Source of the DNA: an uncultured Dehalococcoidia bacterium
Lineage (GTDB): Bacteria > Chloroflexota > Dehalococcoidia > Bin125
Assembly: GCA_958295515.1 (NCBI GenBank)
Contig: CATQGW010000001.1
Location: 1,006,658 to 1,070,657 of the forward strand
Length of the DNA: 64,000 nucleotides
Direction of reading: 5' to 3'
Shown: piece after piece, positions 26,244 to 62,056 of the stretch
How positions within the stretch are numbered: the first letter of the stretch is position 1
How the letters are laid out: the number at the start of each line of letters is the position of its first letter
Notes under the pieces: model-generated
What the model was told of the DNA's origin: nothing
What the model saw: only the letters and a program-made list of their open reading frames with translations
Database searches by the model: none
Translations under genes and position numbers: made by a program

Positions 26244-27071
26244 TCAGCTCGATGCGGAGCGTTGGGGGCGGCCGGGGCCGGGGGGGCCGGCGAAGGCTTG
26301 GGCTCGTTGGAGGAATTCTTCGGCGGCGGGGCCTTGCCACTGGAGGGCGGTGTCGCGGTAGTGGATGCGCTGGGTGGCGACGCGGCAGAAGTCGCCGGCG
26401 GCGCCGTGGATGCGGTTGGGTGCGTCTTCGGGGCCGCGCGCCCAGGCTGCGCCGGAGGGGAGGGTGAGTTCGAGGCGCAGCGGTTCGGAGTTGGGCTCGA
26501 GGCCGCGGGTTTGGTAGGCGAAGGCGCGGGTGATGTAGCCGAGGTGGGCGATGTGCTCGAGGCGGTCGCTGTCGACGGGGGCGATCTGCGCGCCGTCGAG
26601 CGCGTCGAGGCCGTGGCTCCAGCATTCCATGAGGCGGGCGGTGGCGAAGGAGCGGGCGCTCATGGGCGGGCCGGCCCAGGGCAGGCGGTGTTTGGCGTCG
26701 AGCGGGCGGAGGGCGGCTTCGAGTCGGCCGCGGGCGGCGCGCCACCAGTCGACGAGCTGGAGGCGGTTCATATGGCGCGCTTGGTCCTGGGCGTGGGAGC
26801 GCAGGCCGTCGGCGGAGCGCCCGCCGCTGTCGGGGTAGCGCGGCGCGCCGGAGGCGACGATGGCGGCGTGGTCGTCGACTTCGGCGAGGTGGGCGATCAC
26901 GTCGCGGACGAGCCAGCCGTCGCAGGGGGTGGGTCGCTGCCAGAGGGCGTCGTCGGTCTGGGCGAGGGCGTCGTCGAGGTAGCGCTGCTCGGCGGTGAGG
27001 TCGTCGAGGAGGGTTTGCCAGGGGTCGGGCATCTCTGCGCGTCTCTTTCCTGCTGTGTTGGCGCGGCTCAC
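26244..27071 (-). CDS. DinB/MDMPI_N-family protein (mycothiol-type maleylpyruvate-isomerase N-terminal domain).
   Basis: 275 aa with the motif PTPCDGWLVRDVIAHL. Confidence 0.6.
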   Translation of the reverse strand: MSRANTAGKRRAEMPDPWQTLLDDLTAEQRYLDDALAQTDDALWQRPTPCDGWLVRDVIAHLAEVDDHAAIVASGAPRYPDSGGRSADGLRSHAQDQARHMNRLQLVDWWRAARGRLEAALRPLDAKHRLPWAGPPMSARSFATARLMECWSHGLDALDGAQIAPVDSDRLEHIAHLGYITRAFAYQTRGLEPNSEPLRLELTLPSGAAWARGPEDAPNRIHGAAGDFCRVATQRIHYRDTALQWQGPAAEEFLQRAQAFAGPPGPGRPQRSASS

Positions 27072-27190
27072 GGCATTGGGCGGTCAGGTCGCTTCGCCCG
27101 GCGCAGCTGCCGCTGTTGCTTCGGCCCCGATCGGGCCTTGGCCAGCGACGGGCCGCTGTGTAGGGTACGCGGCCCGCGAAGGAGAGTTTC

Positions 27191-27998
27191 GTGAGTTCAT
27201 CCGTTCGTTTTACCCCCCCCCCCACAGGGACGTGCCGCCGCCAACAGCGCACGGTCTCCGCTGCGGTATCCGGGCGGGAAGTCGCGGGCGGTCAAGCACA
27301 TTCGCCCGCACATCCCCGCGAATGTCGGGCAGCTCTGTGCGCCGTTCCTGGGCGGCGCGAGCGTTGAGCTTGCGTGCGCCGCTGAGGGGATCGTCGTTCA
27401 CGGCTCCGACGCATTCGAGCCGCTGGTCAACTTCTGGCGCTTCGCGCTGACCGATGCCGGTCGCCTCGTTGAGCGAGTGCGGGATCATCACCCGTTGTTG
27501 AAGAGCGGGTTCTACAACCTACAGCGGAGTTACCATAACTTGACTGACCCGCTCGAACGGGCGGCGGTCTTCTTCGCGCTCAATCGATCTTCGTTTTCCG
27601 GGACGACGCTGTCAGGCGGTATGTCGCCGGGGCATCCGAGGTTCACGCCCGCGGCGATCACGCGCCTGGAGCAGTTTGCGAACGACGGTTTGTGCGTCGA
27701 GCACCTCGACTATCGAGAGGCGCTGACTCGCCATCCGAACGAATTTCTGTACCTGGATCCTCCTTACGCGAACGGGCAGCGCTTGTATGGCGACAGAGGC
27801 GACATGCACGGGAGCGTTGATCACCGCGAGCTGGCGGCGATGTTGTACCGACGCAGCGGATGGGTGCTGAGCTACAACGACTGCGCCGAGATACGCGAGC
27901 TGTATCGCGGCTACCGCATCATCGAACCGGGCTGGGCGTACGGCATGTCGGGGGAAGGCCGCCTGCGCTCGCGGGAATTGCTGATCATCGATGCCTAG
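27191..27998 (+). pseudogene. Dam-class (alpha, D12) N6-adenine DNA methyltransferase, out of frame at an 11-C homopolymer. It is a phase-OFF or frameshifted allele.
   Basis: GAAGGAGAG lies 6 nt before the GTG at 27191. The GTG frame runs through the C tract and stops at ~27360. A different frame encodes SPLRYPGGKSRAVKHIRPHIPANVGQLCAPFLGGASVEL (Dam motifs X and I) through to FLYLDPPYA (motif IV) and the stop at 27998. That frame has no start codon after its in-frame TGA at 27192 until the internal GTG at 27477. Removing one C joins the GTG frame to the Dam frame and gives a ~269-aa product. Confidence 0.7.
27213..27223. repeat. Homopolymeric C11 tract. On the minus strand it reads G11-TAAAAC.
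   Basis: Direct count across ...cgttttaCCCCCCCCCCCacaggg... Confidence 0.9.
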
Positions 27999-28854
27999 TC
28001 AAGCAGAGAGCGGCAAGGCGTGGGAATATGGACTTGCCCGCCGTCTGGGGCGGATGAACGGAGTGTCCATCCTCTCGAGCAATGCGCCGCTGGCAGCGCT
28101 CAAGGCGTATCATCAGTACGGCGAGCAGGCTCGAGCTGAGATCGAACGCGCTGCGGTTGCTGCCGCGAACTTCCTCGAAGCCCACGACGATCGTTTCGGG
28201 GAACTGGCGAACCTTGAGCTCCAGAGTGATCAGCGCGGTAGAGACGGCGATGTGCGCGACATTCTGGCGGCGACGCAAAGCGGCGACGTGATTGGCATTT
28301 CGGCGAAGCATCGACATCGAGCGCTCAAGCACTCGCGGCTGTCGGACAGCATCGACTTCGGCCTCGAGTGGTACGGCCGGCCTTGCTCGGCAACCTATTG
28401 GGCGCGCGTCAAGCCGGTGTTCGGCAGTCTTCGGCGTGTCAACGTCGGATACTGGCGTGAGTTGCCCGACAAGCATGACGGATATTACCGGCCGGTGTTG
28501 ACAGCGTTCATGGACGAGGTGCGGACCAATGCCGATGCGGCGCGGCTGCTGCGCTACGTCGTCGGGCGCTACGATTTCTACAAGGTGATCAAGTCGAACG
28601 GCGACATCGAGATTCAGTCGTTCAACCTCAGCGGCAGCCTGCAGTGGGGAGCCAAGTTGCCGATGCCGACTCGGATCGTTGAATTTCGACGGGAAACGGA
28701 TCGAGTCGGGACCGCTGAGCTGACGCTTGATCAAGGATGGCAGTTGTCGTTTCGCCTGCACAACGCCAATGCTGCGATCGAGCCGTCGCTCAAGTTCGAT
28801 ATCCAGTTGGTCGGGAGTCCGGAGGAGATGGGCAACTACACCACCGCCTATTGA
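27991..28854 (+). CDS. Putative type II restriction endonuclease partner of the Dam-class MTase, family unknown.
   Basis: 287-aa ORF whose ATG lies inside the MTase stop (ATGCCTAG). Coding-like composition and ~60% GC. A possible variant nuclease motif is GDVRD...GDVIGISAKH. The role is inferred from position only. Confidence 0.4.
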   Translation: MPSQAESGKAWEYGLARRLGRMNGVSILSSNAPLAALKAYHQYGEQARAEIERAAVAAANFLEAHDDRFGELANLELQSDQRGRDGDVRDILAATQSGDVIGISAKHRHRALKHSRLSDSIDFGLEWYGRPCSATYWARVKPVFGSLRRVNVGYWRELPDKHDGYYRPVLTAFMDEVRTNADAARLLRYVVGRYDFYKVIKSNGDIEIQSFNLSGSLQWGAKLPMPTRIVEFRRETDRVGTAELTLDQGWQLSFRLHNANAAIEPSLKFDIQLVGSPEEMGNYTTAY

Positions 28855-29033
28855 TGGTTGTCACCGGTTGGCGCGTACGCCGCGTTGAAGACTGCGGACG
28901 GCTTCGACGATTGCGCCGTGTGCTCGTACTCGCGCATGGCTGCTCCTCCCGCGTTGCGAGGGGAACGTATCGGGCCGGGGCGTGGGCGGCGAGCGTGGGC
29001 GTGGGCCCGCGGTGGGCCCTGTGGACCGGGGTT

Positions 29034-30320: not shown

Positions 30321-31751
30321 ATGGCCGACTTTTATCGCCCGCCCTGGCGCGAGAGCTCCGGCCCGCTGCGTCGGCTCGTCGTGGAGCCGACGCTGCGCTT
30401 TATGCAGGTGGAGGCGGCGGGCGGGATTGCGCTGGCGGTGGCCGCGTTGATCGCGCTGATCTGGGCGAACATCAGCCCGGATTCGTACACTTCGTTCTGG
30501 CACACGGAGATCTCGTTCGACATCGGCATCTGGTCGTTTCAGGAGGACGGGCACGGGGTTCACCTGCAGCACGTGGTCGACGATGTGCTGATGGTGATTT
30601 TCTTTCTGGTGGTGGGCGCGGAGATCAAGCGTGAGGTGGTGCACGGGGAGCTGCGCAATCCGCGGCGCGCGGCGCTGCCGATTATGGCGGCGCTGGGCGG
30701 GATGCTGGTGCCGGCGGGGCTCTACGCGCTGCTCAACACGGGCGGTCCGGGCGGCCCCGGCTGGGGCATCCCGGTGGCCACGGACATCGCGTTCGCGCTG
30801 GGCGTGTTGGCGCTGCTGGGGCCGCGCGTGCCGATTCAGCTCAAGGTCTTCCTGCTCACCCTCGCGGTGGCGGACGATGTGGGCGGCATTCTGATCATTG
30901 CGGTCTTCTACAGCGAGGGCATTCGGCTCGAATGGCTGGCCGGGGTGGTCGGGGCGGTGGCCTTCCTGCTCGTGCTGAAGCGGGTTGGGGTGCGGTACTT
31001 CGGGGCGCATGCGATCGGCGGGGTGTTCCTCTGGCTGACGCTCTGGGAGGCGGGCATTCACTCGCCGCTGGCGGGCGTGATTCTCGGCCTGATCGTGCCC
31101 GCCAGCTCGCTCTACGACCACGGCGGCACGGCGCGCCGGATGGATTATCTGCTGCAACGCTTCCGGCACGCGATCGGCGACGATGATCCGCGCGTCGCGG
31201 AGCATGATTCGCAGGAGGCGCTGCGGGGCATCCGCCATGTTGCGCACGAGGGGATGAGTCCGCTCGAGCGTCTGGAGGAGACGACGGCGCCGATCTCGGC
31301 CTTTGTGGTGGTGCCGATTTTCGCGCTGGCGAACGCGGGGATCGTGCTCAACGCGGACAGCATCAGTGAGGCGGTGAGTTCGAACATCGCGATCGGCATC
31401 TTCGCCGGCTTGCTGCTGGGCAAGGTCGTGGGCATTATGGGCGGCTCGCTGCTGGCGGTGCGGCTGGGGCTGGCGATCAAGCCGCCGGAGCTGCTCTGGC
31501 GCGATATCGCGGGGGCCTCGCTGCTGGCGGGGATCGGCTTCACCGTCGCCATTTTCATTGCGGATCTCTCGTTCCCGCGCGACGACCAGGCGGCGGTGGA
31601 GGAGGTGGCGAAGATGGGGATTTTCGCGGCCTCGGTTGTGGCGGCGGTTCTGGGCTACGCGGTGCTGCGCTTCACGACGGGCCACCGCGTCGCGCCGGCG
31701 GAGGCGGTTGTGGAGCCGGAGGCGCCGCCGGTCGCGACGGGCACGAAGTGA
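30321..31751 (+). CDS. nhaA: Na+/H+ antiporter NhaA.
   Basis: Multi-TM protein carrying the NhaA signature ...IPVATDIAFALGVLALLG... Confidence 0.75.
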   Translation: MADFYRPPWRESSGPLRRLVVEPTLRFMQVEAAGGIALAVAALIALIWANISPDSYTSFWHTEISFDIGIWSFQEDGHGVHLQHVVDDVLMVIFFLVVGAEIKREVVHGELRNPRRAALPIMAALGGMLVPAGLYALLNTGGPGGPGWGIPVATDIAFALGVLALLGPRVPIQLKVFLLTLAVADDVGGILIIAVFYSEGIRLEWLAGVVGAVAFLLVLKRVGVRYFGAHAIGGVFLWLTLWEAGIHSPLAGVILGLIVPASSLYDHGGTARRMDYLLQRFRHAIGDDDPRVAEHDSQEALRGIRHVAHEGMSPLERLEETTAPISAFVVVPIFALANAGIVLNADSISEAVSSNIAIGIFAGLLLGKVVGIMGGSLLAVRLGLAIKPPELLWRDIAGASLLAGIGFTVAIFIADLSFPRDDQAAVEEVAKMGIFAASVVAAVLGYAVLRFTTGHRVAPAEAVVEPEAPPVATGTK

Positions 31752-31787
31752 GCCGTTGATCCGCTGCGCTCGCTCAAGCGTGCGGCC

Positions 31788-32369
31788 TTGGCAGGGCGCG
31801 GCGGTGCGGGTATAACCCTGGGCGTGGATACGAAGAGCGGGCGACGCCGCGCAGACGGCAACGCGGACGAGATCGCGGCGCTGCTCGGCGACGAGCGGGC
31901 GGTGTCGCGCGAGGCGGGCGCGCGTCGGGCGGCGCGCGACGGCTCGGCGCGGCACCTGCGAACGCTCAACGAGCTGGCGCTCGGCGATCCGTCGCAGCGG
32001 GTGCGGCGCGAGGCGGCGGCCTCGATTGGCCGCATCGCGGCCGAGCTGCCGGAGGCGTTTGCGATGCTGGCGGGGCTGGCCGAGCACACGGATCCGGGGG
32101 TGGTGCTGCAGGCCGCGCGTGGGCTGATGCGCAGCGGTCGGGGCTGCACACAGCGGGCGATCGCCGAACCGCTGCTGGATCGCCTCGCGGCGCATCCCAA
32201 CGAGGTCGTGCGCGACTTCGTGGCGGTCGAGCGGGGGCGCGCAGCCCGCGGTCATAACGCGCGTGCGGGGGGGGGGGGGGGTAAAAGCGCACCGCGACGC
32301 GCCGGCCTGGCTGGAGAATCGACTGGTGCAGGGCGACGCGCTCGAGCTGCTGCGGCGCTTGCCCGATGA
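31788..32369 (+). CDS. HEAT / PBS-lyase repeat protein. The C-terminal tail beyond the G tract is probably not native.
   Basis: TTG start. Repeats present: DPSQRVRREAAASIGRI, DPGVVLQAARGL and HPNEVVRDFVA. The reading frame passes through the G15 tract, encoding GGGGG. Confidence 0.45.
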   Translation: MAGRGGAGITLGVDTKSGRRRADGNADEIAALLGDERAVSREAGARRAARDGSARHLRTLNELALGDPSQRVRREAAASIGRIAAELPEAFAMLAGLAEHTDPGVVLQAARGLMRSGRGCTQRAIAEPLLDRLAAHPNEVVRDFVAVERGRAARGHNARAGGGGGKSAPRRAGLAGESTGAGRRARAAAALAR

Positions 32370-33132
32370 CAGCATTCACCTGACGTTCACGTCGCCGCCC
32401 TACTACAACGCGCGTGATTACTCGGTCTACGAGTCCTACGAGGCTTACCTCGACTTTCTGGAATCGGTCTTCGCCGAGCTGCACCGCGTCACCAAAGAGG
32501 GGCGCTTTCTGGTGGTCAACACCTCGCCGGTGATCGTGCCGCGCGCGGGGCGGCAGCATGAGAGTCACCGCTTCGCGATTCCGTTCGACCTGCACCCGCG
32601 GCTGACGGCGCAGGGCTGGCGGTTCATCGACGACATCATCTGGCGCAAGCCGGACGGGGCGGCGAAGCCGCGCAATTCGGGCTTTGCGTCGCACCGCCAG
32701 CCGCTGACCTGGAAGGCGAATGCGGTGACGGAGTATGTGATGGTCTACCGCAAGCGGTCGGCGCGGCTGATCGACTGGAATCTGCGGCAGTACCCGGCGG
32801 ATGTGCGCGAGGCGAGCCGCGCGCCGGACGACTATGAAACGAGCAATGTGTGGGAGATTGATCCCGCCGTTGATCGGGTGCATAGCGCGGTGTTTCCTGC
32901 GGCGCTGTGCGAGCGGGTGATCGCGTATTACTCGATGGTGGGGGACCTGATTTTCGATCCGTTCGCGGGCAGCGGAACGGTGGGGGTGGCGGCGCTGAAG
33001 CTGGAGCGGCGGGCGCTGCTGGCGGAGATCGATGATCGGTATGTGCAGCGGATTCAGAACCGCGTCGGTATGCAAATGCGCGCCTGCACGATCGAACAGT
33101 TATTGGAGGGGCGCGATGCGTCTGAGTCCTGA
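32263..33132 (+). CDS. Beta-class DNA methyltransferase (motif IV SPPY before motif I), probably N4-cytosine specific.
   Basis: The motif order is NRLVQGDALELLRRLPDDSIHLTFTSPPYYN and then FDPFAGSGTVGVAA. The annotated start is the GTG 4 nt before the G tract. An alternative start is the GTG at ~32326, which has a GGAGA RBS. Confidence 0.75.
   Translation: MRGGGGVKAHRDAPAWLENRLVQGDALELLRRLPDDSIHLTFTSPPYYNARDYSVYESYEAYLDFLESVFAELHRVTKEGRFLVVNTSPVIVPRAGRQHESHRFAIPFDLHPRLTAQGWRFIDDIIWRKPDGAAKPRNSGFASHRQPLTWKANAVTEYVMVYRKRSARLIDWNLRQYPADVREASRAPDDYETSNVWEIDPAVDRVHSAVFPAALCERVIAYYSMVGDLIFDPFAGSGTVGVAALKLERRALLAEIDDRYVQRIQNRVGMQMRACTIEQLLEGRDASES
32267..32281. repeat. Homopolymeric G tract of ~15 nt, followed by TAAAAG.
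   Basis: Read directly. The tract length of 15 is the one consistent with both track ORF frames (HEAT ...ARAGGGGGK and MTase MRGGGGVK). Confidence 0.85.
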
Positions 33133-34030
33133 CGGCCTGCGGCACGCGATTCGCTGCCTGATCCGCGACGGCCAGAGCCATCGGCAGGCGATTTTCGAGG
33201 AGATCAACCGCGAATTCGTGCGCCATGCGGTTGAGTTTTTCACCGAGGTCGCGCACGCCAAGCTGAAGGGCGAAGACCTGGCGGCCTCCGAGGACTGGTA
33301 CGAACGGCAGCTGCTGCGCAGCGGCCGATACAGCAAGGAAGAGATCGCTGTTCACGCCGGCATTCCGATGAAAACGATCGAGAACATTCACGAGTCGACC
33401 AGCTCCAATGTGGTGCTCGACGCCAGCTTGCAGAATCATCAGGCGCTGCGGCGGACGATCGAAGAGGTTCTCGCCGCCGGGGAGGGTCCCTCGATCACGT
33501 TGACGATCAAGCTGCGCGGCGTTGGGGTGGATCTCAGCCTCGATGAGAGTCTGATCGTAATCAATTCATTGGCGGTCAAGCGCGAGCGGATTCGCGGCGG
33601 GATGTGGTCCACAGCGGGCAAGCAGGTTGAGGTGCCGCTGATGGCGACGCTCTGTCTGCTGCACGGTGTGGATGATCGCTTCTGGCGGATCGCCAAGCCT
33701 GACGAGTATCCGCATCAGATTGATTTCGTGTTGCAGAGCCACGGAAAGCAGTATCTCTGCGAAGTGAAGCTGATGGGCAAGGGGAACCCGGAAAGCGCCA
33801 AGGCTGCGCACGCGCACAATGCCAATCTGTTGGTCGCCGACCGCCTCTCGGAGCAGGCGAAGCAATCGTTGAGCAAGAACAATGTCGAGTGGGTAGAGCT
33901 GGCGGCAGCGTCGGGCTACCGGCGGTTCGGCGTTGTGCTGGACCGGTTCAACATTGAGCGAGGGGAAGCGGCTGATCTCGAGGGGTTGGATGAGATCATT
34001 GAGCGCGCCATTGAGCGCACGGCTCGCTGA
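33116..34030 (+). CDS. Putative type II restriction endonuclease of the PD-(D/E)XK class.
   Basis: Its ATG overlaps the MTase 3' end by 17 nt. The motif ...HQIDFVLQSHGKQYLCEVKLMG fits D-x13-E-x-K. Local GC is ~60%. Confidence 0.5.
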   Translation: MRLSPDGLRHAIRCLIRDGQSHRQAIFEEINREFVRHAVEFFTEVAHAKLKGEDLAASEDWYERQLLRSGRYSKEEIAVHAGIPMKTIENIHESTSSNVVLDASLQNHQALRRTIEEVLAAGEGPSITLTIKLRGVGVDLSLDESLIVINSLAVKRERIRGGMWSTAGKQVEVPLMATLCLLHGVDDRFWRIAKPDEYPHQIDFVLQSHGKQYLCEVKLMGKGNPESAKAAHAHNANLLVADRLSEQAKQSLSKNNVEWVELAAASGYRRFGVVLDRFNIERGEAADLEGLDEIIERAIERTAR

Positions 34031-34154
34031 GGCGGTGGTGGGATGTTCCGTCGTGCGGCTGTTGGGAGGGAGGCTTTGGCGGGGCTGTGGAGGTTGAATC
34101 CACAACATCCGCGCTTGTTTGCTTGTAGGGTATGCGGCGCACTTGGGAGAGGGA

Positions 34155-36206
34155 ATGCCGATGCCTATCGCAGCCGTGTTGAGCGCCAGGACCGTGGTCG
34201 GCGGCATTGCGCTCGCCGCGTTGCTGCTGTTGGTTGGCGTTGTTCTCGGTATCGCAGGCGGTTGGCAACAGGCGGAAGCTCAGGAGGAAGCCCGCGCGGT
34301 CGCGATCAGCGTCGGCGAATCGCACGCCTGCGCGCTGCTCGACTCGGGCGCGATCGAGTGCTGGGGCGACAACCGGTACGGTCAAACGGATGCGCCGAAC
34401 GGTCGCTTCAGCGCGGTCAGCGCGGGAGATCGGCATAGCTGCGGGCTGCGGGAGGGGGGCGAAGTCGAATGCTGGGGATGGAACGGGTTCGGCCAAACGG
34501 ATACACCGAGCGGCCGCTTTAGCGCGGTGAGCGCGGGTTTGTTCCACAGCTGTGGGCTGTGGAAGACGGGCGAAGTCGAGTGCTGGGGCGACAACCGGTA
34601 CGGTCAAACGGCTGCGCCGAGCGGTCGTTTCAGCGCCGTCAGCACGGGCAGCGCGCACAGCTGCGGGCTGCGGAAGACGGGTGCCGTCGAGTGCTGGGGA
34701 AGTAATGAGTACGGCCAAGCAGGTGCGCCGAGCGGTCGCTTCAGCGCGGTCAGCGCAGGCTGGGGGCACAGCTGCGGACTGCGGGAGACGGGTGCCGTCA
34801 AATGCTGGGGATACAACAGGTCTGGCGAAGCGGCTGCGCCGAGCGGTCGCTTCAGCGCGGTCAGCGCGGGCAGCTCGCGCAGTTGCGGGCTGCGGGAGAC
34901 GGGCGCGGTCGAGTGCTGGGGATGGAACGAGGACGACCAAACGGCTGCGTCGGGTGGTCGCTTCAGCGCGATCAGCGCAGGCTGGTCGCACATTTGCGGG
35001 CTGCGGGAGACGGGCGCGGTCGAGTGCTGGGAAGCCAACAATGCCGGCCAAGCGGCTGCGCCGAGCGGTCGCTTCGGCGCGGTCAGAGCGGGAAATTTGC
35101 ATAGCTGCGGGCTGCGGGAGACGGGCGCGGTGGAGTGCTGGGGAGCCAACAGTGCCGGCCAAACGGGTACACCGAGCGGCCGCTTCAGCGCGGTGAGTGC
35201 GGGCGGGTGGCACAGTTGCGGGCTGCGGGAGACGGGCGCGGTTGAGTGCTGGGGAGCCAACGCCTTCGGCCAAACGGCTGCGCCGAGCGGTCGTTTCAGC
35301 GCCGTCAGCACGGGCAGCGTGCACAGTTGCGGGCTGCGGGAGACGAGCGTGGTCGAGTGCTGGGGGTACAACGGGGGCGGCCGGACGGATGCGCCGAGCG
35401 GTCGCTTTAGCGCGGTCAGCGCAGGCGCTGCGCACAGCTGTGGACTGCGGGAGACGGGCGAGGTCGAGTGCTGGGGACGCAACTTGGACGGCCAAGCGGA
35501 TGCGCCGGGCGGTCGCTTCGGCGCGGTCAGCGCGGGCTGGCGTCACAGTTGCGGGCTGCAGGAGACCGGCGCGGTTGAGTGCTGGGGATATAACAGGTCC
35601 GGCCAAACGGATGCGCCGAGGGGTCGTTTCAGCGCGGTCAGCGCGGGCGAGTATCACAGCTGTGGGCTGCGGGAGACGGGCACGATCGAGTGCTGGGGGT
35701 ACACATTCGACGGACAGACGCAGCCGCCCACAGGGAAGCATCTTCAAATCAGCGCTGGTGCGAATCACGCCTGCGCGCTGAGCGAAGGCGGAACGGTCTC
35801 TTGCTGGACGATCTTCAACGGCGCTGCCGATGTGCCCGCCTGGTTGCGCGAGCCCAGCGTTGAGGCGGTGGGCGATTCTGCCAGCGGTCGGATTGTGGCG
35901 CGCAGGCTGGCCGATGGGCGCACTGAGTTTGCCTGGCTGCCTGCCGGGAGTGAGGAGCGCATCTTGCCGCGCTCGCGCTACTTCCCCACGGGCGCCGCCG
36001 TGGACCGCTGGCTGCGCTCCAGCCCGATCGAGGTTGACGGCGTTGAGATTGGGCGGATCAACGCGCGGCTGCTGGCGAATGGGCGGATTGAGTTGGCGTT
36101 TACGCCGACGGGCGGCGAGCGGATTCTGCCGCCGTCGCGCTACTTCCCGGTGAATGCCGGCGTGGACCGCTGGTTGCGGAGCACGGAGATCGATCCGGGC
36201 GGCTGA
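34155..36206 (+). CDS. Membrane-anchored RCC1-like repeat protein (~21 repeats of ~26 aa).
   Basis: N-terminal TM helix, then the consensus repeat GxVECWGxNxxGQTxAPSGRFSAVSAGxxHSCGLRET. The DNA is 78-bp tandem repeats. The many overlapping antisense ORFs in the track are artefacts. Confidence 0.7.
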   Translation: MPMPIAAVLSARTVVGGIALAALLLLVGVVLGIAGGWQQAEAQEEARAVAISVGESHACALLDSGAIECWGDNRYGQTDAPNGRFSAVSAGDRHSCGLREGGEVECWGWNGFGQTDTPSGRFSAVSAGLFHSCGLWKTGEVECWGDNRYGQTAAPSGRFSAVSTGSAHSCGLRKTGAVECWGSNEYGQAGAPSGRFSAVSAGWGHSCGLRETGAVKCWGYNRSGEAAAPSGRFSAVSAGSSRSCGLRETGAVECWGWNEDDQTAASGGRFSAISAGWSHICGLRETGAVECWEANNAGQAAAPSGRFGAVRAGNLHSCGLRETGAVECWGANSAGQTGTPSGRFSAVSAGGWHSCGLRETGAVECWGANAFGQTAAPSGRFSAVSTGSVHSCGLRETSVVECWGYNGGGRTDAPSGRFSAVSAGAAHSCGLRETGEVECWGRNLDGQADAPGGRFGAVSAGWRHSCGLQETGAVECWGYNRSGQTDAPRGRFSAVSAGEYHSCGLRETGTIECWGYTFDGQTQPPTGKHLQISAGANHACALSEGGTVSCWTIFNGAADVPAWLREPSVEAVGDSASGRIVARRLADGRTEFAWLPAGSEERILPRSRYFPTGAAVDRWLRSSPIEVDGVEIGRINARLLANGRIELAFTPTGGERILPPSRYFPVNAGVDRWLRSTEIDPGG

Positions 36207-40357: not shown

Positions 40358-42323
40358 AGGAGACGAAGATGAAACAGATCGAATCCGAGACGCCATCGGT
40401 CAGCAAGCTGCTCGGCGATACGCGCTACAACATTGACTACTACCAGCGCGAGTACCGCTGGGAGCGGCGACAGGTAGCACAGCTGCTAGACGACCTCTTC
40501 AGCGCTTTTCGCGAGTCGCATGATGGGGAGCATGCTCGGGACAAGGTCGCCACGTACGGACAGTACTTCTTGGGCCCAATCATCGTAAATTGCAGAGAGG
40601 CTGTGACTGACATCGTCGATGGCCAGCAGCGTGTCACAACTCTGACGCTCTTGCTCATTGCGCTCCGGCGTCGCATTCAAGACGAGAATCAGCGAGGCAG
40701 TCTCGCGAACTTGGTCGTGACCCACCAGTTCGGGCAACCAACCTTCACGTTGGACGTGCCCGAGCGCGCGCCTTGCATGGATGCGCTGTACACCGAGCAG
40801 GTCCTCGATCCTGCTTCGGCGGACCCGGCTGTTCGCAAGATCCTCGATTCGCGGGACCCGTCAGTTCGCAACATTCTGGATCGTTTCGCAGACGTTGAGG
40901 AACTGCTGGACGGCGGCCTGGATATGGACGCGTTGCCTTACTTCGCCGACTGGCTTATGTATCGAGTCAAGATGGTCAGCGTGATCGCAACATCGGAAGC
41001 TGACGCCTACACGATTTTCGAGACGATGAATGACCGTGGTCTTCGGCTGACGGCGCCAGAGATGCTTCGTGGCTACCTGCTCTCGCGAATCGAGGACGAG
41101 ACCGAGCGCTCCGAATCGAGCCAGGTGTGGAAGGAGCGAGTCAGCGAGCTGGCCGAAATTGGCAAAGAGGAGGATGTTGACGCGATTCAGGCTTGGCTTC
41201 GCGGTAGGCGCGCAGAAACCGCAAGTCGCTACGTAGCTGGTGTGGAACCGGGCGACTACGAGCGCATCGGCAACGAGTTCCACCGCTGGGTGCGGGATGT
41301 CGAAGAGGATCGATTGGCCCTTCGCTCGCCCTCGAACTTCGCGGACTTCATCCGGACAGACTTCGACTTTTACGTTGGCTGGTACGCGCGTCTGAGGCGG
41401 GCGGCGGAAACGACCACCAACGGCCTGGAGACGATCCAGTACATCGCAAGCCAGGGGTTCACCCTTCAGTACTCCCTCTTGCTGGCTGCCCTGGATGTCG
41501 GCGACAGCGAGGACCTCGCCCTGCGGAAGATTGGCGCGACCGCCGCATACATTGACATCCTGATCCATCGTCGGTTGTGGAACAGCATGCGGATCGGGCA
41601 AACCTACCTACGATTCCCGCTCTTCGATCTGGCGAAGAAAGTCCGGGCGGCGGAATCGATCGAGCAGTTGGTCAAGCTCCTCACCACTGAGATCGAGGGC
41701 AACGAGCTTGGCTTCTCACCGGACTGGCCATTTGCGCGCAATCGACGCAACGGAAACATTGTGCGTCGCATGCTCGCTCGGCTGACATCCTTCGTCGAGC
41801 GCGATCGTCCGGGCAGTGCTGGTTACGCTGAATTGCTCACCACTGGCCGCGATGGCTACGACATTGAGCACGTCATCGCGGACAAGCCGGAGCGCTACGC
41901 CGACGAGTTCGCGAATGAGGCCGAGTTCGACGCAGAGCGCAACTGGATCGGTGGGCTTTTGCTCATTCCGAGCAGCGTCAATCGCAGCTTCGGCGACCTC
42001 GCCTACGAGCCCAAGCGCGAGCACTATCTCAAAGAGAACTGGCTTGCAGCGAGCCTTCATGAGGCGGCCTATAAGCACAATCCGAAGCTCAAGCGGTTTG
42101 CGCAGGCGCGTGGCCTTGAGCTACAGGCGTATCCGCACTTCGGGCGGGCGGAGCTTGATGCTCGACAAGAGCTTTATGAGCAGATCGCTGCGGAAGTCTG
42201 GCGAGTTGACCGCATCAAGGAGGCAGCTGGTCTCCAGTTGGCGTAACCGGCAGCCGAGAAGACTCGTCGCGTGGGCACCTGATCGTGACGATTGCGATTG
42301 TGCCGCAGATTAGCGGGGGCTAG
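40321..42323. mobile_element. About 2-kb inserted segment carrying a type IV restriction gene, bounded by 38-bp imperfect direct repeats (40321-40361 and 42283-42323).
   Basis: gattgcgattgtgccgcagattagYgggggctagaggag occurs twice, with one mismatch. The second copy re-encodes ...IAIVPQISGG*. The internal GC (~58%) is lower than the flanks. No integrase or transposase is visible. Confidence 0.55.
40369..42246 (+). CDS. GmrSD-like type IV (modification-dependent) restriction endonuclease, DUF262 plus DUF1524.
   Basis: 625 aa. The N-terminal region has the DGQQR motif (VTDIVDGQQRVTTLTLLL). The C-terminal region resembles a His-Me finger (DIEHVIADKPE...NRSF). Confidence 0.7.
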   Translation: MKQIESETPSVSKLLGDTRYNIDYYQREYRWERRQVAQLLDDLFSAFRESHDGEHARDKVATYGQYFLGPIIVNCREAVTDIVDGQQRVTTLTLLLIALRRRIQDENQRGSLANLVVTHQFGQPTFTLDVPERAPCMDALYTEQVLDPASADPAVRKILDSRDPSVRNILDRFADVEELLDGGLDMDALPYFADWLMYRVKMVSVIATSEADAYTIFETMNDRGLRLTAPEMLRGYLLSRIEDETERSESSQVWKERVSELAEIGKEEDVDAIQAWLRGRRAETASRYVAGVEPGDYERIGNEFHRWVRDVEEDRLALRSPSNFADFIRTDFDFYVGWYARLRRAAETTTNGLETIQYIASQGFTLQYSLLLAALDVGDSEDLALRKIGATAAYIDILIHRRLWNSMRIGQTYLRFPLFDLAKKVRAAESIEQLVKLLTTEIEGNELGFSPDWPFARNRRNGNIVRRMLARLTSFVERDRPGSAGYAELLTTGRDGYDIEHVIADKPERYADEFANEAEFDAERNWIGGLLLIPSSVNRSFGDLAYEPKREHYLKENWLAASLHEAAYKHNPKLKRFAQARGLELQAYPHFGRAELDARQELYEQIAAEVWRVDRIKEAAGLQLA

Positions 42324-46668: not shown

Positions 46669-46686
46669 TGGGGGGGGGGGGGGGGG
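46669..46686. repeat. Homopolymeric G18 tract followed by TAAAAG, ~100 bp upstream of the yhhQ-like gene.
   Basis: Direct count across gaattGGGGGGGGGGGGGGGGGGtaaaagttgg. Confidence 0.9.
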
Positions 46687-46783
46687 TAAAAGTTGGATTG
46701 ACGGTTTGCCACAGGTCGCTATCGTGGGCGCCGTAGGTGGGGACGGAAGCGGAACTCGCGCGCTGGGGAGTGGGAGCGAGACG

Positions 46784-60223: not shown

Positions 60224-62056
60224 ATGCCTATCTCAGCCGTGTTAGGCGCAAAGACTGTAGTCGGAGGGCTTACGCTCGCCGCGTTACTGCTGTTGGTCGG
60301 CGTTGTTCTCGGCATCGCAGACGGTTGGGAACAGGCGGAAGCACAGGGTGGAGATCGTGAGGTCGCGATCAGCGTCGGCCTCTGGCACGCCTGCGCGCTG
60401 CTCGACTCGGGCGAAGTCGAATGCTGGGGAGACAACCGGGACGGCCAAACGGCTGCGCCGAGCGGTCGCTTTAGCGCAGTCAGCGCGGGCAGCTCGCATA
60501 GCTGCGGACTGCGGGAGACGGGCGCGGTCGAGTGCTGGGGAGCCAACCGGGACGGCCAAACGGATGCACCGAGCGGTCGCTTCAGCGCGGTCAGCGCGGG
60601 CACGTCGTACACCTGTGGGCTGCGAGAGACGGGCGCGGTCGAGTGCTGGGGAGCCGACTGGTTCGGCGAAGCGGATGCGCCGAGCGGTCGCTTCAGCGCG
60701 GTCAGCGCGGGCGCGTTCCGCAGCTGCGGGCTGCGCGAGACGGGCGCGGTCGAATGCTGGGGAAACAACCGGAATGACCAAACGGCTGCGCCGAGTGGTC
60801 GTTTCAGCGCAGTCAGCGTGGGCGCGTCGCACAGTTGCGGGCTGCGGGAGACGGGCACAGTCGAGTGCTGGGGAGACAACCGGAACGGCCAAACGGCTGC
60901 GCCGAGCGGTCGCTTCAGCGCGGTCAGCGCGGGCACGTCGTACACCTGTGGGCTGTGGGAGACGGGCGCGGTCGAGTGCTGGGGTTACAACTGGAACGGC
61001 CAAACGGCTGCGCCGAGCGGTCGCTTCAGTGCGGTCAGCGCGGGCGTGAACCACAGTTGCGGGCTGCGGGAGACAGGCGAAGTTGAGTGCTGGGGCGGCT
61101 ACGAGCAAGGCCAAACGGCTGCGCCGAGCGGTGACTTCAGCGCGGTCAGCGCGGGCGCGTGGCACAGCTGCGGGCTGCGGGAGACGGGCGCGGTCGAGTG
61201 CTGGGGGGACAACTATTCCGACCAAGCGGATGCGCCGAGCGGTCGCTTCAGCGCGGTCAGCGCGGGCTGGTCGCACAGCTGCGGGCTGCGGGAGACGGGC
61301 GCGGTCGAGTGCTGGGGAGACAACAGGTACGGCGAAGCGGATGCGCCGAGCAGTCGCTTTAGTGCGGTCAGCGCGGGTGGGTTGCACAGCTGCGGGCTGC
61401 GGGAGACGGGCGCGGTCGAGTGCTGGGGAGGCAGCAGGTACGGCGAAGCGGATGCGCCGAGCGGTCGCTTCAGCGCGGTCAGCGCGGGCGCGGAGCACAG
61501 CTGCGGATTGCGAGAGACGGGCGCGGTCGAGTGCTGGGGATGGAACGAATACGGCCAAACGGATGCGCCGAGCGGTCGTTTCAGCGCGGTCAGCGCGGGC
61601 GCGGAGCACAGCTGCGGATTGCGGGAGACGGGCGCGGTCGACTGCTGGGGAGACAACAGCCGCGGCCAAACGGATGCACCGAGCGGTCGCTTCAGTGCGG
61701 TCAGCGTGGGCTGGTCGCACAGCTGCGGGCTACGGGAGACGGGCGCGGTCGACTGCTGGGGATACGAGTTCGACGGGCAGGCACAACCAGCCGGCAAGCA
61801 TCTTCAAATCAGCGCTGGTGTGTATCACGCCTGCGCAGTGAGCGAAGACGGAACCGTCTCCTGCTGGATGATCTTCAACGGCGCTGCCGATGTGCCGGCC
61901 TGGCTGCGCCCAGCCAGTCTCCCGTCCACCGGCACAGGCGGCCTGCTGGACCGCCGCATTGGCGCTCTGGAGCTGGGTGTAATCGCCCTCGTGGCGCTAG
62001 GCATCCCGACGCTATCGCTGCTCACGCTGTCGGCATGGCGTCGGAGCCGTCCATAG
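60224..62056 (+). CDS. RCC1-like repeat surface protein with a C-terminal LPSTG sortase sorting signal.
   Basis: Paralog of the 34155..36206 product. The C-terminus is ...ASLPSTGTGG, then a hydrophobic span and RRSRP. Confidence 0.7.
   Translation: MPISAVLGAKTVVGGLTLAALLLLVGVVLGIADGWEQAEAQGGDREVAISVGLWHACALLDSGEVECWGDNRDGQTAAPSGRFSAVSAGSSHSCGLRETGAVECWGANRDGQTDAPSGRFSAVSAGTSYTCGLRETGAVECWGADWFGEADAPSGRFSAVSAGAFRSCGLRETGAVECWGNNRNDQTAAPSGRFSAVSVGASHSCGLRETGTVECWGDNRNGQTAAPSGRFSAVSAGTSYTCGLWETGAVECWGYNWNGQTAAPSGRFSAVSAGVNHSCGLRETGEVECWGGYEQGQTAAPSGDFSAVSAGAWHSCGLRETGAVECWGDNYSDQADAPSGRFSAVSAGWSHSCGLRETGAVECWGDNRYGEADAPSSRFSAVSAGGLHSCGLRETGAVECWGGSRYGEADAPSGRFSAVSAGAEHSCGLRETGAVECWGWNEYGQTDAPSGRFSAVSAGAEHSCGLRETGAVDCWGDNSRGQTDAPSGRFSAVSVGWSHSCGLRETGAVDCWGYEFDGQAQPAGKHLQISAGVYHACAVSEDGTVSCWMIFNGAADVPAWLRPASLPSTGTGGLLDRRIGALELGVIALVALGIPTLSLLTLSAWRRSRP

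Follow-up and report, generated by a model that had tools for sequence, protein, structure and literature searches.

An important question raised by the restriction-modification (R-M) locus described here is what a run of fifteen guanines (G15) is doing inside a reading frame. The locus lies in a stretch of 64,000 nucleotides (the window; contig CATQGW010000001.1, positions 1,006,658 to 1,070,657) from an uncultured Dehalococcoidia bacterium of the Chloroflexota with a genomic GC content of 68%, and it consists of a segment encoding HEAT repeats, a segment encoding a DNA methyltransferase (MTase) and an overlapping endonuclease gene; coordinates are those of the window and features are on its + strand unless otherwise stated. 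Only three homopolymers in the window exceed seven nucleotides, namely C11 (27213-27223), G15 (32267-32281) and G17 (46670-46686), and the counts of G-runs fall roughly geometrically with length up to seven, of which there are seven cases. With the background ending at seven, a G15 tract inside a reading frame is far above chance. The best reading, and on balance a probable one, is that the tract is a hypermutable phase-variation (contingency) element in a Type II R-M system and that the copy in the window is in the split state. A simple-sequence-repeat contingency locus in an R-M gene is an already known kind of element; what is unusual here is the host lineage and its GC content, the length of the run, the position of the tract in the linker of an uncharacterised HEAT-MTase fusion and its coexistence with an intact Type II endonuclease.

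A single gene read in two frames

A preliminary description of this DNA placed the G15 tract directly before an SPPY-type MTase, and that is where the sequence has it. Read from a GTG at 32263, the MTase open reading frame (ORF) is 289 aa long, ends at the TGA 33130-33132 and has the tract as its codons 2-6, as had been proposed; the tract lies at the same time within the HEAT ORF (31788-32369 as read in the window), again as described, which passes through it in a different frame from that of the MTase. The interpretation of these ORFs as two genes, with the HEAT ORF as a separate upstream gene and the tract near the start of a standalone MTase, did not survive. The "upstream HEAT ORF" and the MTase are two halves of a single gene, frameshifted at the G-run: in some 80 homologues they form one protein of 390-476 aa, of which the tract is the interdomain linker, encoding poly-Gly when in frame. 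The HEAT-repeat domain is encoded in frame 0 by 31824-32266, from a GTG start at 31824 that agrees with the N terminus 'MDTKSGRRR' of the conspecific proteins P0147 and P0154, and the window HEAT ORF, which matches PF13646 with an E-value of 8.5e-16, is the same as protein P0149 except for the initiator residue. The beta-class N4/N6 DNA MTase domain is encoded in frame 1 by 32282-33132, and its conserved N-terminal segment, HRDAPAWLENRLVQGD, begins immediately 3' of the tract. HEAT_2 and N6_N4_Mtase thus stand in frames 0 and 1 and not in one polypeptide, and the window copy is a frameshifted allele of the HEAT-MTase fusion family. Run lengths of G14 or G17 would join the two halves; in the G15 state the HEAT ORF has a wrong-frame tail of 29 codons (32282-32369) that ends at the TGA 32367-32369, and with G16 the window sequence is predicted to stop at the TAA 32282-32284. 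The earlier proposal that a change in tract length shifts the frame into the MTase is therefore supported.

The fusion family itself is widespread and unstudied. Most of the proteins found by a search with the MTase ORF are 390-476 aa long, with HEAT_2 (PF13646) followed by N6_N4_Mtase; the roughly 80 fusion homologues span both Bacteria and Archaea, and their linkers often read GGGG to GGGGGGG. Eight HEAT residues (G69, R70, P91, Q96, R99, L101, H124 and N126) are invariant among 78 aligned fusions. In 78 of 84 sequences (the window and 83 further loci) the next gene after the HEAT-MTase encodes a CfrBI-like endonuclease, and loci with both genes occur in Chloroflexota, Poribacteria, CPR bacteria, Bacteroidota, DPANN archaea and others, making this a widespread two-gene module. 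An AlphaFold2 (AF2) model of a close fusion, P0002, is confident (pLDDT 87, pTM 0.83) but for several short low-confidence segments, of which one is the Gly linker (residues 148-153). A Foldseek search of this model against the PDB gave matches for the MTase domain only and none for the HEAT domain. NCBIfam profiles gave no informative names, and a scan of metagenome contigs with a clade-specific MTase fragment found only relatives of at most 68% identity, all of them without the tract.

The two enzymes are readily identified. The MTase ORF matches PF01555 (N6_N4_Mtase) with an E-value of 2.3e-39 and 136.1 bits (cut-off 26.7) over profile positions 1-220 of 221, and motif IV (TSPPY, aa 43-47) precedes motif I (FAGSGT, about aa 233-238 of the 289-aa ORF), which is the beta-class order; in the AF2 model the fold matches those of TTHA0409, the rotifer N4CMT, CcrM and M.PvuII. 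By analogy, the SPPY motif and the CfrBI-type partner suggest that the product may be N4-methylcytosine (m4C). The endonuclease gene (33116-34030) starts at an ATG at 33116 with a GGAGG (33105-33109) 6 nt upstream, the Shine-Dalgarno sequence TGGAGG being conserved, and it overlaps the MTase gene by the 17 nt originally reported. Its product belongs to the CfrBI family of PD-(D/E)XK endonucleases (PF09516, RE_CfrBI; E-value 7.5e-18, 65.2 bits against a cut-off of 25, profile positions 13-255 of 257), and the D...ExK motif noticed in the preliminary description corresponds to catalytic residues D203, E216 and K218 in IDFVLQSHGKQYLCEVK, which are invariant across 77 homologues. The endonuclease is full length in every split locus examined. 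The designation as an R-M module is upheld, specifically as a Type II system with a beta-class SPPY MTase and an overlapping PD-(D/E)XK endonuclease. A tblastn search of plasmids with the endonuclease gave no match, and exact-sequence look-ups of the endonuclease (with two choices of start), of a second, HaeIII-like endonuclease of the window and of protein P0003 were likewise without a match. The drop in GC content remarked on earlier is also real, with values of 0.60-0.66 for 32400-34000 against 0.74-0.76 just upstream (31600-32400, HEAT segment included) and 0.66-0.72 past 34000, and the higher-GC HEAT segment is part of the same gene as the lower-GC MTase.

Variation of the tract among strains

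Tract lengths were read from assembly consensus sequences in a conspecific set of six, made up of the window and five contigs of the ENA metagenome assembly ERZ19489113 (L001, L084, L085, L086 and L087) that share its synteny (NhaA, HEAT/MTase, endonuclease). The flanks of the tract differ among the conspecific contigs at 0-5 positions per 40 nt on each side, and the run itself takes three lengths with three different consequences. Two copies (the window and L087) have G15 and are split with the 29-codon wrong-frame tail, two (L001 and L086) have G16 and are split with the HEAT ORF ending at the TAA (after 165 aa in L001), and two (L084 and L085) have G17 and a single HEAT-MTase ORF of 436 aa. 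The tract is the sole indel across the 2.25-kb operon in the six copies, pairs of which differ by 35-88 substitutions. Run length does not track relatedness: divergence is greatest (3.9%) between the two G17 copies, and the window copy is 2.75% from a G17 copy as against 3.4% from the other G15 copy. When 11 conspecific contigs are classed by ORF type, six have the TAA stop, three the wrong-frame tail and two the fusion, and the 29 closest cluster representatives comprise eight fusions and 21 split genes. In these consensus sequences, then, tract length varies between close relatives, it alters the frame and it is the only lesion.

We infer that the length differences are true alleles arising at a high rate. 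An alternative would be that the tract is in reality never out of frame (with a length of G17, say), that the consensus is off by one or two bases and that the gene is an ordinary intact fusion. The observed lengths do cluster within 1-2 nt of an in-frame value, with 15, 16 and 17 around 17 at this locus and, at two further tracts considered below, C16 and C18 around 17 and C14 beside 15; the names of the contigs suggest long-read metagenome assemblers, and purifying selection is seen on all parts of the locus. Such an artefact would, however, require that nine of the 11 conspecific contigs were miscalled, including the modal call of G16, and split calls predominate also on short contigs, which are probably from short-read assemblies, and in several species clusters, where they stand beside fusion calls. 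The between-species lengths of 9, 13, 14, 15, 16 and 23 are real differences, and the C11 and C14 found at one of the other tracts differ by three. Miscalling as the general explanation is consequently rated as quite unlikely.

Conservation of the tract and selection on the locus

A pure G-run is found 97-122 nt before the sequence encoding PPYYNARD in nine further loci of related genomes, eight of which are named Dehalococcoidia metagenome-assembled genomes (MAGs), with MTases that are 72-89% identical. It is in frame in three (L002 and L005 with G14, L006 with G23) and clearly out of frame in the remainder (L003 and L007, which are the same, and L014 with G15, L008 with G16, L010 with G9 and L049 with G13). 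A further locus, L011, has G13 at 254 nt before PPYYNARD, with a gap-interrupted insertion after the run, and reads out of frame, and L004 is without a run and in frame. Including L011, the run lengths among related Dehalococcoidia loci (n = 10) extend from G9 to G23 at the same site, whilst the DNA beside the run shows no conservation from one species to another. Between tract-bearing species synonymous sites are saturated (dS 0.9-2.1), and GGG accounts for only 26.5% of the glycine codons in this genome, compared to 58% for GGC, so that selection for a Gly linker alone would not keep 13-23 G pure. The distant fusions (about 70, at 46-51% identity) and 28 metagenome relatives are without the run. 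In two loci, L009 (1-60) and L011 (4342-4495), both probably from short-read assemblies, the linker region reads as C11/C11 or as G13 followed by a gap of N and C26/C14, and the contig begins at the linker region or is scaffolded across it; the linker is hard to assemble and may vary more than the clean cases indicate.

The three parts of the locus are under purifying selection. Overall, dN/dS ranges from 0.02 to 0.24 in the MTase, from 0.04 to 0.31 in the endonuclease and from 0.10 to 0.33 in HEAT; when only pairs of split loci are compared, the ranges are 0.03-0.17 (MTase domain), 0.05-0.31 (endonuclease) and 0.10-0.33 (HEAT). No further stops or indels were found in the HEAT, MTase or endonuclease parts of the split loci. 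As all three parts are constrained, the locus is not decaying. The one observation that would suit a decaying R-M system, with the frameshift as the initial lesion of a pseudogene, is that the gene is split in most sampled genomes; against this stand the lack of other stops or indels in the split loci, the dN/dS of 0.02-0.33 even in split-split pairs and the intermixing of in-frame and split alleles among close strains. Pseudogene decay was rejected on the dN/dS values and is very improbable indeed.

The same data bear on the suggestion that the DNA frame is not selected at all, since slippage of RNA polymerase or of the ribosome on GGG would mix the frames and some full-length fusion would always be made. 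In-frame alleles make up about one third, as expected without selection on frame, and the MTase domain is nonetheless under strong purifying selection; recoding would also account for the tolerance of an intact endonuclease. The runs of 13-23 G are longer, too, than the modal nine repeats reported for the polyC/G phase-variable tracts of C. jejuni (PMC3401435). However, offsets of 0, +1 and +2 are all present among strains, whereas programmed ribosomal frameshifting needs a fixed offset, and no stimulatory structure was identified in support of recoding. To our knowledge, documented bacterial transcriptional slippage concerns A/T runs, and G/C runs are not an established case. Programmed ribosomal frameshifting was rejected, the frame offset (0, +1 or +2 among strains and species) not being fixed, and recoding in general appears a doubtful and rather improbable explanation.

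Candidate starts for a separate methyltransferase

It has also to be asked whether the tract might only set the attachment of the HEAT domain, with translation of the MTase still beginning internally, at GTG 32326 or, in the G15 state, at GTG 32263. Methylation would then persist, the endonuclease would be tolerated and HEAT would act in trans or not at all. The downstream GTG that the preliminary description put at about 32326 is present at 32326-32328, with a GGAG (32313-32316) 9 nt upstream, and would give a standalone MTase of 268 aa; gene callers choose it in all close relatives. GTG 32263 yields a complete MTase domain in the G15 state, and the gene calls for the related P0012 and P0131 start just upstream of the tract. 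Since each split locus keeps the endonuclease intact and behind a Shine-Dalgarno sequence of its own, protection is needed, which domain fission would supply, and the pTM of 0.83 in the model of P0002 suggests a defined HEAT-MTase interface that might be able to re-form in trans.

The internal start is not conserved, however. L003 and L049 are without any ATG, GTG or TTG within 260 nt upstream of PPYY, and the only candidate in L010 is 36 nt before PPYY. Starting at GTG 32326 drops W/L/N residues that are conserved in at least 90% of fusions and, judging from the predicted structure, would cut half of the first beta-strand (residues 168-171). GTG 32263 is without a Shine-Dalgarno sequence, and in the commonest state, G16, the TAA shuts the MTase frame just 5' of the tract; no canonical start before the tract in the MTase frame was found in the other split loci examined. 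It is unlikely that domain fission is the function of the tract.

Probable phase variation and the points against it

If the tract is a phase-variation element, as seems probable, events would proceed as follows. HEAT-MTase and endonuclease form one operon, probably transcribed from a promoter with a -35 element that overlaps a CCTTGG sequence. The G-run in the flexible linker would behave as a hypermutable simple-sequence repeat at which slipped-strand mispairing during replication adds or removes G. At lengths of 3k+2 (G14, G17, G23) ribosomes from the HEAT start would pass through a poly-Gly linker into the MTase, at G16 they would halt at the TAA immediately 3' of the tract and at G15, as in the window, they would enter the wrong frame for 29 codons and then stop. 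The split state would be expected to lower methylase output, and endonuclease output may drop along with it through lost upstream translation and transcriptional polarity. The window would in that case represent the OFF, or strongly reduced, state of a reversible and heritable switch. Such a switch is in keeping with the C-runs of varying length in the 5' coding leaders of two further R-M genes, which are located at a variable defence slot of this species.

Several considerations weigh against this reading. The names of the contigs point to assemblies that are probably of PacBio HiFi reads, and length differences of +/-1 could be noise; indels in homopolymers of 15-17 nt are the main residual error of reads of that type. 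In every split locus the endonuclease gene is undamaged, and it is preceded by a strong Shine-Dalgarno sequence of its own, so a true methylase-OFF state should be toxic unless restriction drops too. What is puzzling is that in most genomes the methylase is out of frame and yet the classical Type II endonuclease is kept intact. Finally, the in-frame state is in the minority (2/11 conspecific contigs and 8/29 cluster representatives) and was found in none of the five cases at the two leader tracts (0/3 for one cassette, with a D12-class MTase, and 0/2 for the other, with an Eco47II-like endonuclease). An in-frame share near or below the one third expected without selection on frame fits rapid switching and irrelevance of the frame equally well.

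The promoter and a possible recognition site

The promoter-like element of the operon (31788-31816) was read by eye and from conservation, and comprises TTGGCA (31788-31793), a 17-nt spacer and TATAAC (31811-31816). A CCTTGG sequence, which is a CCWWGG, overlaps the -35-like hexamer at 31786-31791. The start GTG 31824 comes 7 nt after TATAAC, a spacing that suggests a leaderless or near-leaderless mRNA. The layout, CCTTGGC(A/C/G), 17 nt, TAT(A/C)(A/C)C, 6-8 nt and start, occurs also in L002, L003, L008, L005 and L004, and CCTTGG lies over the -35-like hexamer TTGGC(A/C/G) upstream of the HEAT start in 16/16 loci of the clade despite diverged spacers, with a second CCWWGG near the promoter in six of them. 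Among 66 distant homologues a CCWWGG between -120 and +10 was seen only once. A generic promoter and terminator scan of 31.7-34.2 kb gave nothing; it missed the promoter-like element because the -10 hexamer ends in C.

CCWWGG is also about two-fold under-represented in the window, with 16 occurrences against 29.9 expected. CfrBI recognises CCWWGG and M.CfrBI is an N4-cytosine enzyme (PMC6556831), and methylation of a single site in the promoter region regulates the system (PMC6556831; bioRxiv 10.64898/2025.12.04.692298). The CCTTGG in the promoter, together with the scarcity of CCWWGG, suggests that the present system may have CCWWGG specificity and a CfrBI-like methylation feedback.

Other long homopolymers and the defence slot

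The C11 run (27213-27223) belongs to the first R-M module of the window, in which it forms leader codons 8-11 of a D12-class (Dam-like) MTase gene (27191-27998). The start of this gene, GTG 27191, which follows an AAGGAG at 27179-27184, is out of frame with the body of the MTase, and C10 or C13 would be in frame; the corresponding tract is C14, and out of frame too, in L001 (4879-4892) and L087 (2887-2900). The HaeIII-family endonuclease of the module (27991-28854) is intact, its ATG overlapping the stop of the D12 MTase. Other strains have in this slot an Eco47II-like endonuclease with an N6_N4 MTase, or a GmrSD gene. The Eco47II-like cassette has C16 and C18 (L085, 3477-3515, and L086, 2959-2999), both out of frame where C17 would be in frame, and its leader resembles that of the D12 gene (compare 27150-27223 of the window) in having AAGGAG, GTG AGY TCR TCC G..., TTTT(T)A and a C-run, so that to judge from the sequences there looks to be a shared leader-plus-tract module before unrelated R-M genes. 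The slot lies between DinB/MDMPI-like and luciferase-like genes (about 27030-28860 in the window) and has four alternative contents among co-occurring strains (the window, L001 and L084-L087), namely the D12 MTase with the HaeIII-like endonuclease, the Eco47II-like endonuclease with its MTase, GmrSD, and an MTase with an ORF without assignment. It is a hotspot of defence-gene swapping.

The G17 tract (46670-46686), which reads G17-TAAAAG, is intergenic, lying between a luciferase-like gene on the - strand and the divergent gene for a Vut_1/YhhQ-type transporter (ATG 46784). It is just upstream of a promoter-like pair (TTGACG, 16 nt, TATCGT), and in L088 and L089 (1388-1403) it is G16 with identical flanks. 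Each long G/C run seen in the species is followed by TAAAA on its G strand, with three cases in the window (27208-27219 on the - strand, 32275-32286 and 46680-46691 on the + strand) against 0.05 expected, and others in L085 and L086; the motif was noted in L049 as well, and in related species TAA or an A/T-rich sequence often follows the run. That the three window tracts are copies of one mobile element was considered and rejected, as their alignment shares only G(n)TAAAA. An Rfam scan of 26.5-47.5 kb at gathering thresholds found no known riboswitch or RNA at any tract. A scan of viral contigs for G12TAAAA gave 91 matches, mostly in contigs of mid or low GC, but was without a control and is therefore uninformative.

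It is tentatively possible that long G/C runs with TAAAA constitute a lineage-wide, portable switch system. On this extension of the phase-variation reading, a start-codon leader and tract would have become attached to unrelated R-M genes at a cassette-swapping slot, with one tract splitting the HEAT-MTase fusion and another in a promoter region, and the tracts might be slippage-decoded or might toggle between a fused and a free HEAT domain that controls the endonuclease. They may not be simple ON/OFF elements, given that most genomes combine an out-of-frame methylase with an intact endonuclease. If true, slippage decoding or HEAT toggling would be an undescribed way of regulating Type II systems.

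Some further features of the window may be recorded. Its acetolactate synthase shares 86% identity with proteins named "[Chloroflexi bacterium]" and 64% with Dehalococcoidia/Tepidiformaceae proteins. There is a strong strand asymmetry, G making up 38.8% and C 28.8% of the + strand, and some palindromes are strongly avoided (GTGCAC with 2 observed against 13 expected, ACGCGT with 3 against 17 and GGCC with 428 against 617). Two large RCC1-repeat proteins are encoded at 34119-36206 and 60224-62056; in some strains (L084, L086) the first of them, which comes just after the CfrBI-like endonuclease, is missing or has been replaced. At 40369-42246 there is a Type IV restriction gene of the GmrSD type.

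Relation to known systems and significance

The closest documented precedent, by analogy, is cj0031 of C. jejuni, in which a mid-gene polyG splits the gene into cj0031/cj0032 (PMC4889913). In this CjeNII-type Type IIG system, as here, a G-run in the coding sequence lies between conserved domains, indels give two annotated ORFs and the tract is found in only a subset of homologues. There are differences too. The G9 of cj0031 lies in an R-M enzyme that is one polypeptide, in an AT-rich pathogen, such that the OFF state removes restriction and modification together; here G15-G17 (up to G23) in a genome of 68% GC parts HEAT from MTase, and the endonuclease is encoded separately, behind a ribosome-binding site of its own. 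CfrBI of Citrobacter freundii is alike in having an endonuclease of Pfam family RE_CfrBI, an MTase with SPPY and a CCWWGG in the promoter. Its genes are divergent with a common promoter, however, a layout that differs from the co-directional MTase and endonuclease genes described here with their overlap of 17 nt, and in the literature covered neither a HEAT domain nor a homopolymer is mentioned for CfrBI; in the present case the recognition sequence is a putative one.

Phasevarions, based on Type III mod or Type I hsd genes in Neisseria, Haemophilus and Helicobacter, have a repeat within the MTase gene that gives heritable and reversible ON/OFF switching. The simple-sequence repeat in an MTase gene and the presence of several tract-bearing R-M genes per genome are features in common. 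In Type III systems restriction needs Mod and the OFF state is safe, whereas here a classical Type II endonuclease is separately encoded; the hosts of phasevarions are host-adapted pathogens and the present host is an environmental or symbiont member of the Chloroflexota. MTases of the M.SsoII type, which belong to Type II systems, resemble the fusion in carrying an additional domain N-terminal to the catalytic one, with a flexible linker between the two. In M.SsoII the additional region (residues 1-71) regulates transcription of the system (PMC3978073); the N-terminal domain is here a HEAT domain of about 145 aa and the linker is a mutable homopolymer. The arrangement in which the putative recognition site lies in the promoter is conserved in the HEAT-MTase loci of this clade.

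R-M phase variation driven by repeats is known almost only from the small AT-rich genomes of host-adapted pathogens. The same signature is seen here in a member of the Chloroflexota with 68% GC, in the form of very long pure G-runs that are polymorphic among co-occurring strains and concentrated in R-M genes. If the phase-variation reading is true, homopolymer "frameshifts" in long-read MAGs should not be corrected automatically, nor annotated as pseudogenes or as two genes, and contingency loci would partly drive the strain-level heterogeneity of defence and methylation in complex natural communities.

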